From sequence record PV189403.1: a stretch of 59,532 nt of DNA; one strand, written 5' to 3'. Shown piece after piece: positions 39,973-43,681 of this stretch; within the stretch, counting starts at the first letter, position 1, and each line of letters begins with the position of its first letter. This stretch comes from Escherichia phage vB_EcoP_phi315. The position numbers and the translations under genes are program-made. Below the pieces are notes generated by a model. It had not been told where the DNA came from and searched no databases. It was given only the letters and a program-made list of their open reading frames with translations.

Positions 39973-40358
39973 TCATCTTGCCGTCAGTTGTTTTGATTTC
40001 CGGTAGCCTGCCGCGTAAAGAGCTACGTTTGGAAGACATACACCAGTTTCTGGTTGCTTATGTCCAAACTCATTCGCGTACACAATGGCCGCTCGCTCCA
40101 GATTGCGTCTGTATTCTTTCTGTTGCCAGATCACGTCCTGTGCCATGAACTTAATTGGCTTAGCGTCTTCTATGCGCTCAGGCGTTTCGTGAGTACCTTT
40201 AGCCTGAATCTGCGCTCTGCTTAGAGTAGGGCGGTGTAATACTTCTGAACTTATTGCTTCTTCGCGGGCCAGCACGCCGTTAGCTAATGCCTTTGCCTTT
40301 AAACGCTCACGACGACGAGAACGTGAATTGCCTTTGAACTGAGTTCTGCGTGTCATAT
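39973..40358 (-). CDS. N: N antitermination protein (P22/21 type)
   Basis: ATG at 40356-40358 with AGGAGG RBS; N-terminal Arg-rich motif SRSRRRERLKAKA; C-terminus VALYAAGYRKSKQLTAR resembles P22 N. Confidence 0.7.
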
Positions 40359-40511
40359 AGACCTCCTGATGAACTTTGGTGGTGTGGTAGGTGGGAGACC
40401 CATTTCGACCTACTTCAATTCGGCAATAGTCCCGCAGGCCTCGCCGCTTTACGTGCGACATATTCCCGTCCATGAACCCTTCACCACACCCCAAAGTTCA
40501 CTTTGGTTATT

Positions 40512-40526: not shown

Positions 40527-40810
40527 CGTAGATTCATATTCGAATCGTTGTATATTCACCGCCCTGGTGAGTAATGCGTCCTGCTGATGACGATAATAAT
40601 GAACCAATAGTTCGACATTATCAAGAACTATTGGTACGAATTTTGGTGATTTATTAACTCTACGAAGTATGATTCTGATATATAAGGAAATTTATTTTTG
40701 AAAATGTGGCTGATGAAGGTTATGCGGCAGGGATCATAACTGCATGGTTTAGCGAGTTACATCAATAAATACAATTGGTTATGTTTTTTAGGTGGGGGGA
40801 TCGTGAGGCA

Positions 40811-40834
40811 AAGAAAACCCGGCGCTGAGGCCGG
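40811..40834 (-). terminator. intrinsic terminator ending the cI-distal (rex-position) operon
   Basis: CCCGGC-gctga-GCCGGG hairpin followed on the minus strand by TTTTCTTT. Confidence 0.6.
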
Positions 40835-40835
40835 G

Positions 40836-41000
40836 CTAGATTTTAAAGTATTTATCTTTTAGAGATGTAGATGTAAAACTTTTCGCCTTTGAAAATTTTT
40901 TGTCATCAGAAGGGCTTATGAACTCATCTTTTTTGTAGGGAACCGCTAATGCTGCATCACGTCTGCGAGGCAGCTTGCTTACTTCCTCGCGCTTTTTCAT
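40836..41000 (-). CDS. small Lys-rich ORF downstream of the kinase gene
   Basis: 54-aa ORF not in the track, starting 2 nt after the kinase stop with AAGGA RBS; ends at the terminator. Confidence 0.3.
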   Translation of the reverse strand: MKKREEVSKLPRRRDAALAVPYKKDEFISPSDDKKFSKAKSFTSTSLKDKYFKI

Positions 41001-41002
41001 GA

Positions 41003-42049
41003 TCAGTTATCCTTTAATAACCTATACAGTTTTGTAGGGGTACATCCTGAGGATATTGTTAAGTTCGTAGCACGCCTTTTCCGCCCATCATCGTATAAAC
41101 GAAAACCAGTAGTAGACGAATTTTCTGCGTCAAAAACTATAGACAGTATAGCGTCCCCAGACTTTTTTTGCCATTCGCATGTGCCGTTAGTTGGTTTCGT
41201 CATCTGTAGACGCCAGTCAAGAACGCCATCACTTATAGCTGAGAGATCGTTTAGTACATCTAGTACGGATTGATATCTTTCATTTGGATCTACATGAATG
41301 CATTTGTTCACTATTGTTATTAATTTTTTATGTATATGGGGAGGATACTCTTTTAATGGATAGCAGCCATTAATTATCGACTCTCTGAGTTGTTCAATCG
41401 TGCTAAATGCAGATCTTTCTCTTTCAAAATTATCATGTCCAACACACATTCTATATATGGTTAATCCTGCCTGATATATGTCATATGTGAAATTATAATC
41501 ATTTGTTGATAAAGAAAAATATTCCGGTGGCACATGAAAATGATATCCAAACTCAGGCGCAGCTCTCGATTCCTCATTGACTAACTGAGATAATCCAAAG
41601 TCAGATAGCATGGCCTCATTTCTGTTTGATATCATAATGTTATTAGGTTTTATATCAAAATGCATAAGACCTTTTGAGTGTATATGATAAAGTCCACTTA
41701 AAAATTGAATGGAATACCGTATTATCTCCCTGCTTGTAAGATTATTTTTTTTCATTAATTGGTTTAGCGAACCATTATGATAAAATGGCATGGCTATATA
41801 GATATTGCTCTCACATTGAGCAGCATACTGAACTTGCACAATATTTGGATGTGCATGTTTATAGAGAAGCCTTGCTTCATTAAAGTAGTCGTCGTGGTTA
41901 GTGTTTTCTTTTTTTTCTATTTCTTTAATCACCAAGTCATGAGCTAGGTGTCTGTCATGAGCCAGATATACTTTTGAAAAACAACCCTGTTCTTCTAGAT
42001 CACTAATCCATTCGAATTCTACATCAGCTCTTTTGTATGGAGTTAGCAT
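41003..42049 (-). CDS. stk: Hanks-type Ser/Thr protein kinase (Stk-like)
   Basis: 348 aa with kinase subdomains: VIKEI (Lys), HFDIKPNN catalytic loop, DFG, PEY; AT-rich; start overlaps upstream gene stop. Confidence 0.8.
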   Translation of the reverse strand: MLTPYKRADVEFEWISDLEEQGCFSKVYLAHDRHLAHDLVIKEIEKKENTNHDDYFNEARLLYKHAHPNIVQVQYAAQCESNIYIAMPFYHNGSLNQLMKKNNLTSREIIRYSIQFLSGLYHIHSKGLMHFDIKPNNIMISNRNEAMLSDFGLSQLVNEESRAAPEFGYHFHVPPEYFSLSTNDYNFTYDIYQAGLTIYRMCVGHDNFERERSAFSTIEQLRESIINGCYPLKEYPPHIHKKLITIVNKCIHVDPNERYQSVLDVLNDLSAISDGVLDWRLQMTKPTNGTCEWQKKSGDAILSIVFDAENSSTTGFRLYDDGRKRRATNLTISSGCTPTKLYRLLKDN

Positions 42050-42504
42050 CCCCTTACCTCCGCAGATAGTGCAGCCAAAACAGCTTCATTTGTTTCAGTT
42101 GTAAAACCAGAATTATCGATTCCATTTATATTGCGGTGTGACTTCAATATTTCTTTATACTCGATCTCTGTTAGGTTCAATGATGATTTCATGCCAGATT
42201 TTCTAATAGTGTAATATTTTCTTACATCACTGCTTGAAAATGCTTCTTGAATAACAGCTTCTATATAAAGGCGGTCAATGCTAAGATTATCAGAGTTTGA
42301 TTCAGTAACGCGTATGGCAGCTAATTCAACATTATATAAATTAAGAATGTCGAGGATGTTATTTCTCACATACTTTAATTTTTCTGGTGTGTCTAAGGTC
42401 GAAGGTATTTTAATAACATCAACACATTTGAGTGCAGACTCATTAGTGCAATATACAACAAAAGATGTAACTTTGGGCGCCGCTCTAACACCTAGTATTC
42501 TCAT
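42043..42504 (-). CDS. hypothetical protein, kinase-cassette partner
   Basis: 153-aa AT-rich ORF (MRILGVRAAPKVTSFVVY...) overlapping the kinase start by 7 nt. Confidence 0.5.
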   Translation of the reverse strand: MRILGVRAAPKVTSFVVYCTNESALKCVDVIKIPSTLDTPEKLKYVRNNILDILNLYNVELAAIRVTESNSDNLSIDRLYIEAVIQEAFSSSDVRKYYTIRKSGMKSSLNLTEIEYKEILKSHRNINGIDNSGFTTETNEAVLAALSAEVRGC

Positions 42505-42571
42505 TTTTTATATCCTATTTTAGAATCAGGCCGCATCTCTGCGACCATCCATCATCCAAACGTCTCTTCAC

Positions 42572-42913
42572 TCATCCGAAGAAGCAGCAATCCGGGTCAG
42601 CACGCACAAGCTCAAGCGCATCAGTCAGCGAAAGTTCAGTACTGTACTGATGCCATTTCATATCCTTCCGCATCCAATAGATTTTCCATCTATCCAGAGA
42701 ACGTATGTACTTGATTCTTGCTGATGGCAGGATGTTTGTTTCACCTGGATTGCCCTGCCACACGGGGCGCTGTTCGCCGATATCTATCGTTTGGTCATTG
42801 ATGCTATAAACAATATCCAGTTCATTGCGGATATGTTCAGGCGGCCTTATGCTTTCAATGAATTGGTGAACTTCTTTTTTTACTGCTTGATATTCAAGGT
42901 CATTGAACGCCAT
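42572..42913 (-). CDS. hypothetical protein, first gene downstream of cI
   Basis: 113-aa ORF with AAGGAGGA RBS, 60 bp downstream of the cI stop on the same strand. Confidence 0.5.
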   Translation of the reverse strand: MAFNDLEYQAVKKEVHQFIESIRPPEHIRNELDIVYSINDQTIDIGEQRPVWQGNPGETNILPSARIKYIRSLDRWKIYWMRKDMKWHQYSTELSLTDALELVRADPDCCFFG

Positions 42914-42973
42914 CTATCCTCCTTACCCAAACGTCTCTTCAGGCCACTGGTTACCAGCTATGTGACGATGAAG

Positions 42974-43681
42974 TCACGAACTTTTCAGCCACTCCCTTGC
43001 CTCGATGTCATCCAGATGGCGAGATTGCTTCAGAATACCAGCTACATACTCCACCTTTGCTACTTGATGATAAGGCAACGTTATAGGCCTGTGATCCTGG
43101 TTAATGCTTGTAAATTGGTATTCTCCATCTCTGTCATAGCCAAGAACCTTAATCATGTTGTGTCCTTCAACGGTTCTGACAAACACCTCATCACCCGGGA
43201 ATACTTTGGTGTTAGGCTCAATGAGTACATATTCTCCTGATTTTATTCTGGGCCACATGCTGTCTCCTTTCACACGAAGACCAAAGGCATCTGGATCATC
43301 GCTATAAATTTTGAGCCACCCATCGCGCTCTTCGGTCATCTCGATGGCACCATCAACACCAAGAATTGCCTCACCAACCACGCGCACTAACCCTTTTTTT
43401 AATTTGCCAACAAATGAAAGAGTATCTTCATCATTCGCTCCATTTAACGAAGTGCCGTGCTGAAGCCAAACAACATCAACGTTTAGAAATTTCGCAAGCG
43501 CATTCATTTTTTCCTGACGCGGTAAAGACTCAGCATTAAACCATTTGCTAACGCCTTTGGACGAAAGAGAAAGGGCACGGGCTATAGCCATTCCCCTACC
43601 ATGTTCATCAAGACCAGCTTCTTTACAGGCTTGCGCTAGCCGCTGGGCGAATTCTTTGCGCACTTTTTCATTCTGAACCAT
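42974..43681 (-). CDS. cI: CI-type prophage repressor (HTH + LexA/S24 peptidase-like domain)
   Basis: 235 aa; N-terminal HTH; C-terminal GDSMWPRIKSGEYVLIEP Ser-Lys autocleavage motif; divergent from cro. Confidence 0.85.
   Translation of the reverse strand: MVQNEKVRKEFAQRLAQACKEAGLDEHGRGMAIARALSLSSKGVSKWFNAESLPRQEKMNALAKFLNVDVVWLQHGTSLNGANDEDTLSFVGKLKKGLVRVVGEAILGVDGAIEMTEERDGWLKIYSDDPDAFGLRVKGDSMWPRIKSGEYVLIEPNTKVFPGDEVFVRTVEGHNMIKVLGYDRDGEYQFTSINQDHRPITLPYHQVAKVEYVAGILKQSRHLDDIEAREWLKSS

Follow-up and report, generated by a model that had tools for sequence, protein, structure and literature searches.

The stk immunity locus of Escherichia phage vB_EcoP_phi315 as a probable combination of a three-gene kinase unit and a separable DUF3024 gene

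We analyzed a four-gene cassette of Escherichia phage vB_EcoP_phi315 (record PV189403.1) in a stretch of 59,532 nucleotides (nt), which we call the window and to whose full length all positions refer. The cassette lies directly downstream of the repressor gene cI and encodes, in this order, a DUF3024 protein of 113 amino acids (aa), a 153-aa protein with a RuvC fold, the 348-aa protein kinase Stk, and a small basic protein of 54 aa. It probably consists of two units within a lysogen-expressed immunity operon: a DUF3024 moron and a three-gene kinase system built around Stk. Comparisons of gene order indicate that the RuvC-like gene, stk, and the small open reading frame (ORF) form an invariant three-gene unit, hereafter the trio, whose linkage is obligate across phyla. 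They also indicate that the DUF3024 gene is a separable moron, independent of the kinase. Homologous loci that were fetched for comparison carry labels of the form L0nn or H43, given where they are needed.

The cassette is the stk locus of phage 933W itself and not a novel analogue. When positions 40600-43000 were compared with phage records by megablast, the DNA was 100% identical to Shiga toxin 2 (Stx2)-converting phage 86 and to phi419. It was 99.8% identical over 2,401 nt to 933W (AF125520/NC_000924), and also 99.8% identical to phi24B, Stx2 phage I, and many others. The gene order in the matching records is cI, L0084 (DUF3024), L0083 ("RuvC-like Holliday junction resolvase"), stk, L0081, and stk is annotated in those of 933W, phage 86, and phi24B. 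The initial annotation of the window, made from the letters alone, had read the cassette as a 933W-like phage-exclusion module. Exclusion by Stk is indeed published, but the locus is no mere analogue, since the comparison with the 933W immunity region returned identity (99.8%). Given a match of 99.8-100%, kinase-based exclusion is already published for this locus and is not new. The locus and its headline function were known, and the finding as first written is a rediscovery. In sequence terms there is no difference from 933W Stk. The searchable literature treats Stk as a lone kinase, whereas here its gene stands between the two others of an invariant trio. Among 5,426 complete genomes of E. 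coli, 258 have a match to the cassette and 223 carry it whole. Some copies are damaged: that of E. coli UTAK-2 (H43, NZ_CP157162.1 788432-791875) is interrupted by an IS3-family transposase, and three copies in viral contigs (L074, L075, L078) have a kinase ORF that is shorter at the 5' end, consistent with a frameshift. Such damage may reflect a cost of carrying the kinase.

The strongest constraint on the composition of the system comes from its neighborhood in distant genomes. A scan that started from the RuvC-like gene and used one genome per GTDB species gave 24 loci in gamma-, beta-, and alpha-proteobacteria, Bacteroidota, and Firmicutes. They include Xenorhabdus, Proteus, Marinobacter, Psychromonas, Acinetobacter, Pseudoxanthomonas, Lampropedia, Pontixanthobacter, Terasakiella, Sphingobacterium, Pedobacter, Cytophagales, Clostridium carboxidivorans, and Lachnoclostridium. 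In every one of the 24, a Stk-like kinase of about 342-355 aa lies downstream and overlaps or abuts the stop codon of the RuvC-like gene. The reciprocal scan, from the kinase in viral contigs, found the RuvC-like gene directly upstream in 78 of 80 loci. The remaining two have the kinase at or close to a contig edge and no upstream sequence, so that the count is 78 of 78 informative loci. The trio spans a wide divergence, down to about 29-35% identity in the RuvC-like protein and 34-40% in the kinase. Hence, the claim of the initial annotation that the kinase has dedicated partners is borne out for the RuvC-like gene and the small basic ORF.

The third gene is the least conserved in sequence and the initial annotation had mentioned it only in passing, yet it turns out to be a universal component. 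A basic ORF of 47-65 aa (isoelectric point, pI, 9.3-11.5) occurs near the kinase stop in every locus with downstream sequence. Of the 23 genomic loci whose sequence continues beyond the kinase, 22 have its start at -3 to +29 nt from this stop; L038, the remaining one, has it about 130 nt downstream. The recurrent motifs are an N-terminal MKK, a motif of the [LS][TS]R type, and a C-terminal aromatic-hydrophobic one; the sequence is otherwise weakly conserved.

The surroundings of the trio are variable. In prophages of Klebsiella and Proteus, the RuvC-like gene stands behind different repressors and always precedes a kinase gene of 345-349 aa and an ORF of 53-59 aa, without DUF3024. The trio is also found behind unrelated repressors in E. 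coli prophages, and its flanks elsewhere include S24 repressors, integrases, methyltransferases, MobA, YoeB, and SmpB. Since these flanks are heterogeneous and the trio is constant, it behaves as a self-contained mobile module. In one metagenomic contig (L010, 1-4585), Wadjet genes for a JetC-like SMC and JetD are directly upstream of a trio whose RuvC-like protein is 43% identical, and the context is that of a defence island.

These data bear on the possibility that Stk acts alone, as a single-gene abortive-infection (Abi) kinase like Stk2 and PD-T4-6, and that its neighbors are unrelated morons sharing the pRM transcript. PADLOC models do match only the kinase and, separately, the DUF3024 protein, and Stk expressed from plasmids reportedly autophosphorylates. 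In the literature (PMC3681748, PMC8008677), Stk is the only component named. The PADLOC inventory of the O157:H7 strain ECRC101 likewise gives PD-T4-6 and PDC-S43 as separate single-gene systems (bioRxiv 10.64898/2026.07.23.740414). This pair is, however, the PADLOC output expected for the cassette, with the RuvC-like and small genes missed. Morons that merely share a transcript would not be expected to keep the same order, with overlapping or abutting frames, in 24 of 24 genomic and 78 of 78 viral loci from three phyla, while everything around them changes. As the linkage is kept at about 29-35% and 34-40% identity, chance co-travel is implausible. We consider it unlikely that Stk acts alone, and the classic "single-gene" Stk defence is probably a three-part system.

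The DUF3024 gene follows a different pattern. Its product matches Pfam DUF3024 with an E value of 2e-31 and 108.9 bits (cut-off 24.9), and the PADLOC model PDC-S43, which stands for a candidate system only, end to end (1-113) at 5e-42. The AlphaFold2 model (mean predicted local distance difference test, pLDDT, 91.7) is an alpha+beta fold made of a helix, a five-stranded sheet, and a helix; structural comparison of this model gave no informative match. DUF3024 is not mentioned in the searchable literature. The gene is beside the trio in a single genomic locus (Proteus penneri), being absent from 23 of the 24 genomic and 46 of the 80 viral trio loci, and prophages with the trio only are present in E. 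coli, Klebsiella, and Proteus. Conversely, it occurs without the kinase. In Rahnella it stands alone, with DinI and tail-fibre genes next to it; in P22-like prophages of Salmonella it separates cI from the gene for a ParA-like ATPase; and in E. coli 95NR1 its neighbors are the same 933W-type cI on one side and an unrelated 173-aa gene on the other. The place downstream of DUF3024, where the window has the trio, encodes a 357-368-aa ATPase of the ParA/AAA_31 type in the Salmonella loci (L013/L014, 5448-6554) and a protein without Pfam match in E. coli 95NR1 (L040, 1871-2392). Since this cargo differs, the cI-DUF3024 position is a variable cargo hotspot.

Partial matches in E. coli break in the 67-nt gap between the two units, trio-only matches covering positions 1-1755 of the query and DUF3024-only matches 1718-2131. 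In the window, two exact copies of GAAGAGACGTTTGG bracket the DUF3024 gene (0.05 expected by chance). Of the E. coli loci fetched, most have the pair around this gene and a few a single exact copy; HK97 has one copy at the cI stop. The repeat resembles a conserved junction after cI at which modules are exchanged. The G+C content points in the same direction, with 0.447 for the DUF3024 gene, close to the 0.452 of cI, and 0.355 for the trio (0.348 for the RuvC-like gene, 0.354 for the kinase, 0.376 for the 54-aa ORF). The low G+C content relative to cI that had been ascribed to the whole cassette thus applies to the trio and not to the 113-aa gene. The contrast in composition and the bracketing repeats support a separate origin of DUF3024. 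In Erwinia aphidicola (L011, 4071-7130), DUF3024 and the trio are found together at another position of the prophage, beside DinI and tail-fibre genes and not beside cI. There, DUF3024 is 60% identical to that of the window and the adjacent RuvC-like protein 86%, a difference which suggests that the two have had separate histories.

The initial annotation had taken all four genes, DUF3024 included, for one system. They are on one transcript, from cI to the terminator, and they co-occur in the 223 E. coli genomes mentioned above, in Proteus penneri, and, at the other prophage position, in Erwinia aphidicola. This reading nevertheless meets the absence of DUF3024 from most genomic and many viral trio loci, its occurrence alone or upstream of unrelated cargo, its own G+C content and flanking direct repeat, and the discordant identities in Erwinia. 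We regard it as very unlikely and rejected it on account of the independence of DUF3024 from the kinase. Hence, of the four-gene module proposed at first, the three-gene part stands and DUF3024 drops out.

Stk itself is an intact Hanks-type kinase, as had been recognized from its motifs. Residues 21-260 match Pfam Pkinase (PF00069) at 2e-46 and 158.8 bits (cut-off 31.7), and the catalytic Lys and the HxDxKxxN, DFG, and APE motifs are intact, in the form of VIKE (K42), HFDIKPNN (130-137), DFG (150-152), and PPEY (174-177). At least 26 of 27 homologues share the residues K42, E58, H130, D132, K134, N137, D150-F-G, P174-P-E, W279, and W293. The two tryptophans belong to a C-terminal domain of about 85 aa that is outside the Pkinase match. 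The PADLOC models mad6 and PD-T4-6 match the kinase domain only. The former scores higher, and the best match of the PD-T4-6 hidden Markov model has an E value of 1e-37 and 128 bits. The architecture is not that of a stand-alone PD-T4-6, since the RuvC-like gene and the small ORF always flank the kinase.

Two of the partners had been described as unrecognised, which does not hold. The 113-aa protein belongs to the families named above, and the 153-aa protein has the RNase H-like RuvC fold and is named "RuvC-like" or "RuvC family protein" in public records. The resemblance to RuvC is distant. The Pfam RuvC model (PF02075) matches only the N-terminal half, with an E value of 0.042 and 14.2 bits, below its cut-off of 22.2, and the NCBIfam RuvC model scores 12.5 against a cut-off of 163. 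Searches of PDB sequences with the single sequence and with the family profile returned no RuvC, and only chance matches to MinE and ALIX. The alignment to E. coli RuvC by hhalign is weak (E 0.04) and was used solely for the residue register. In the register given by Pfam and hhalign, Arg7 falls on Asp7 of RuvC ("ILGVR" against "ILGID") and R65 on Glu66.

The position of D7 is Arg in 26 of 26 homologues from three phyla, across which R7, R47, R65, E68, E82, Q86, E87, S92, and E140 are invariant. We extended these counts to 149 cluster representatives from a library of 1.84 billion proteins. Position 7 is Arg in 141 of the 142 representatives that have a residue there, position 65 is invariably Arg or Lys, E68 is present in 147 of the 149, and E140 in 127 of 131. 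The 153-aa protein does not have the catalytic acidic tetrad of E. coli RuvC (D7, E66, D138, D141). The equivalence of R65 and E66 is less certain than that of R7 and D7, because E68 is three residues further on, and the glutamate is possibly retained as E68; E140 may stand for D141. As the first metal-binding Asp is replaced by Arg throughout the family, the protein is predicted to be catalytically inactive and is not expected to be a conventional resolvase. An active Holliday-junction resolvase was rejected on the basis of the same replacement. The 153-aa protein also differs from RuvC resolvase in its low identity (about 12-15%) and in its genomic context, the gene being always beside the kinase and never beside ruvAB. 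The family is of modest size, with 446 representatives at E <= 1e-3, and its members always stand alone; full-length matches in the best 150 of them mostly have about 150-165 aa and at most 243 aa.

The same residues are relevant to a reading in which the roles are reversed, the kinase being the sensor or switch and the RuvC-fold protein an active nuclease effector whose phosphorylation would set off the breakdown of phage or host DNA. Such an effector sits uneasily with an Arg at the D7 position in nearly all representatives, with Arg or Lys at the second catalytic position, and with the Pfam RuvC score below cut-off. In addition, published work (PMC3681748; reportedly also Friedman et al., 2011) gives broad kinase-dependent phosphorylation as the lethal event. 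We find the reversed arrangement improbable.

The primary descriptions of 933W Stk are reportedly those of Tyler and Friedman (2004) and Friedman et al. (2011). According to later accounts, the eukaryote-like kinase Stk, encoded by the 933W prophage, has little activity in uninfected cells (PMC3681748); it is expressed in lysogeny (PMC3681748, PMC8008677), and infection by HK97 activates it, leading to exclusion (PMC3681748, PMC8008677, summarising Friedman 2011). Expression of two further genes of the cassette can be traced to work on phi24B. Using two-dimensional polyacrylamide gel electrophoresis, Riley et al. (2012) found that phi24B lysogens yield the proteins P2 (17,096 Da, "p23 of 933W") and P3 (13,472 Da, "p24"), whose genes are downstream of cI and have quantitative PCR profiles that resemble that of cI (PMC3342100). 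The masses we computed are 17,096 Da for the 153-aa product and 13,473 Da for the 113-aa product, and this match indicates that both proteins are made in lysogens. The expression of the cassette in lysogens, which had been inferred from its position, is thereby confirmed. Relative to cI, the transcripts were higher by about five orders of magnitude for the DUF3024 gene and about one for the RuvC-like gene, although no promoter is evident between the genes (PMC3342100). An internal promoter, mRNA processing, or mRNA stability may account for these levels. Our consensus promoter scan found no excess of sites over shuffled sequence and lends no support to internal promoters.

These observations can be assembled into a mechanism. 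The DUF3024 moron would have been dropped between two copies of the conserved junction sequence. The pseudo-RuvC protein would be a regulatory or sensing subunit that holds Stk quiet in the lysogen and recognizes the trigger. The signal might be the Erf recombinase of HK97 itself, or branched or annealed DNA arising from Erf. Once released, Stk would phosphorylate many host proteins, and the infected cell would no longer support phage growth. As the third subunit, the small basic protein, whose translation is coupled to that of Stk, would most likely be an inhibitor, a pseudosubstrate, or an adaptor. We infer that the pseudo-RuvC and the small protein are subunits controlling Stk. A fold that binds recombination junctions, together with a kinase triggered by a foreign recombinase, would give a coherent picture of sensor and effector. 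In HK97 (AF069529), gene 41 is erf by gene order (40, erf, 42, kil = 43), and the erf product, a single-strand-annealing recombinase, matches the Pfam ERF superfamily at 2e-44. The resident phage carries Bet (RecT-type), not Erf, and Bet is the only recombinase seen in the short flanks around trio-carrying prophages in the E. coli loci. In its general form, our proposal is that Stk is the catalytic subunit of a widespread, undescribed three-component defence, mobile in prophages and islands of Proteobacteria, Bacteroidota, and Firmicutes, in which a dead RuvC senses phage recombination (Erf or its DNA intermediates) and switches on a promiscuous kinase. We put this forward tentatively, as a possibility short of a probable one.

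Several points weigh against this proposal. The link to Erf assumes that gp41 of HK97 is the trigger of Stk, as Friedman et al. (2011) reportedly found. The equation of gp41 with Erf would follow from gene numbering, and the product field of AF069529 reads "Gp40", apparently a typo. Published genetics credits exclusion to stk, and the partners would be dispensable if stk alone gives regulated exclusion. Other kinase defences, namely staphylococcal Stk2 (Depardieu, 2016) and PD-T4-6 (Vassallo, 2022), are reportedly described as single genes. The partnership of Stk with the 153-aa and 54-aa proteins is deduced from sequence comparisons. Fusions of the RuvC-like protein with the kinase were not found among the 150 best of the 446 family representatives. 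Finally, the invariant acids E68, E82, E87, and E140 leave room for unconventional catalysis by the RuvC-fold protein.

The trio might instead be an addiction module that stabilizes the prophage or island, with the kinase as toxin, the small protein, the RuvC-like protein, or both as antitoxin, and exclusion as a side effect. Its architecture resembles that of three-gene kinase toxin-antitoxin modules such as HipBST, as both have three small coupled genes around a kinase that is harmless until released. However, the kinase of HipBST is HipA-like and that of the trio Hanks-type, and the trio has no helix-turn-helix antitoxin, so that the likeness would be one of architecture only. The presence of the trio on many kinds of mobile elements, beside YoeB, integrases, and MobA, would also fit an addiction module, as would the silence of Stk until it is triggered (PMC3681748). 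The exclusion of HK97 via Stk is documented (PMC3681748, PMC8008677), and one homologous trio adjoins a Wadjet defence system. Addiction as the primary function seems to us quite unlikely. Many Abi systems resemble toxin-antitoxin modules, so that the two readings, addiction and defence, are compatible.

The layout of the operon is given in Table 1; N and the pL-like promoter, too, are listed on the minus strand. All four cassette ORFs of the initial annotation were reproduced exactly by the ORF list. The predicted overlap of the RuvC-like and kinase genes is real (7 nt, 42043-42049), and 2 nt separate the kinase stop from the start of the 54-aa ORF. The terminator that had been placed at the end of the cassette also proved sound: a hairpin with an 8-pair stem (6 GC) followed by TTTTCTTT lies directly 3' of the 54-aa stop, and tRM is annotated at the matching site of the phi24B record. 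The same record places pRM upstream of cI, and those of phi24B and 933W both have the cI annotation with pRM/OR just upstream. The order is then pRM, cI, DUF3024, RuvC-like gene, stk, small ORF, terminator. We place a putative pL/oL at about 40596-40660 from a consensus match and the annotation of related records. Gene order and spacing agree with a cassette in the slot equivalent to rexAB, between cI and pL/N. Just downstream of N, an AT-rich 156-aa ORF on the minus strand (39444-39914; local G+C content about 0.34-0.39) matches no Pfam family. According to the phi24B record, HK97 has it too, Gp45 of HK97 being of equal length (471 nt); the ORF may be another lysogeny or early-operon moron.

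Table 1. Positions of the features of the immunity operon and its downstream neighbors in the window
Feature	Position	Strand	Basis and remarks
cI repressor, 235 aa	42974..43681	-	ORF list; Pfam HTH_3 + Peptidase_S24; first operon gene
14-nt direct repeat GAAGAGACGTTTGG, upstream copy	42927..42940	-	junction cI/DUF3024 gene
DUF3024 protein, 113 aa (933W L0084/p24)	42572..42913	-	ORF list; Pfam; PADLOC
14-nt direct repeat GAAGAGACGTTTGG, downstream copy	42556..42569	-	junction DUF3024 gene/trio
RuvC-fold protein, 153 aa (933W L0083/p23), trio component 1	42043..42504	-	ORF list
Stk, Hanks-type protein kinase, 348 aa, trio component 2	41003..42049	-	ORF list; Pfam Pkinase
Small basic protein, 54 aa, pI 10.0 (933W L0081), trio component 3	40836..41000	-	ORF list; PHROG 4063
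Intrinsic terminator-like hairpin and T-run (tRM/tImm equivalent)	40816..40837	-	sequence scan
pL-like promoter (putative)	~40624-40596		consensus match and related-record annotation
N	39973..40494		ORF list

The system shares with lambda RexAB its position, on the pRM transcript between cI and a terminator that precedes pL/N, and its logic of an abortive-infection function expressed by the prophage. The parts are different. Rex consists of a sensor and a membrane ion channel, whereas the Stk system has a soluble kinase, a RuvC-fold partner, and a small basic protein. The RexA and RexB families are not among the Pfam matches of the four cassette proteins at E <= 1, and a RexAB homologue was rejected for lack of homology. 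Like Stk, Stk2 and PD-T4-6 are Hanks-type kinase Abi effectors triggered by a phage protein. The 933W subfamily differs from them in having a C-terminal domain of its own, with W279 and W293, and two obligate neighbors without PADLOC model.

Shiga-toxin phages of E. coli O157:H7 and its relatives carry this locus, which offers one of the oldest cases of an infected cell being killed by a prophage kinase so that a rival phage is stopped. To our knowledge, how Stk stays silent and how a phage protein activates it has never been explained. What the present analysis adds is that three genes form the unit, that the RuvC fold is altered at its catalytic site, and that DUF3024 stands apart. Neither these nor any description of a three-component architecture or a RuvC-like partner was found in the searchable literature, outside of which most subscription journals fall. 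Multi-gene Abi systems are common, and a three-gene reading is unsurprising in kind. If it is true, two of the three genes escape the defence-finding tools that label Stk as a single-gene PD-T4-6. And if the kinase never occurs apart from the RuvC-shaped and the small basic protein, the sensor and the brake should be sought first in these two, and the question of how Stk is held off and switched on becomes directly testable.

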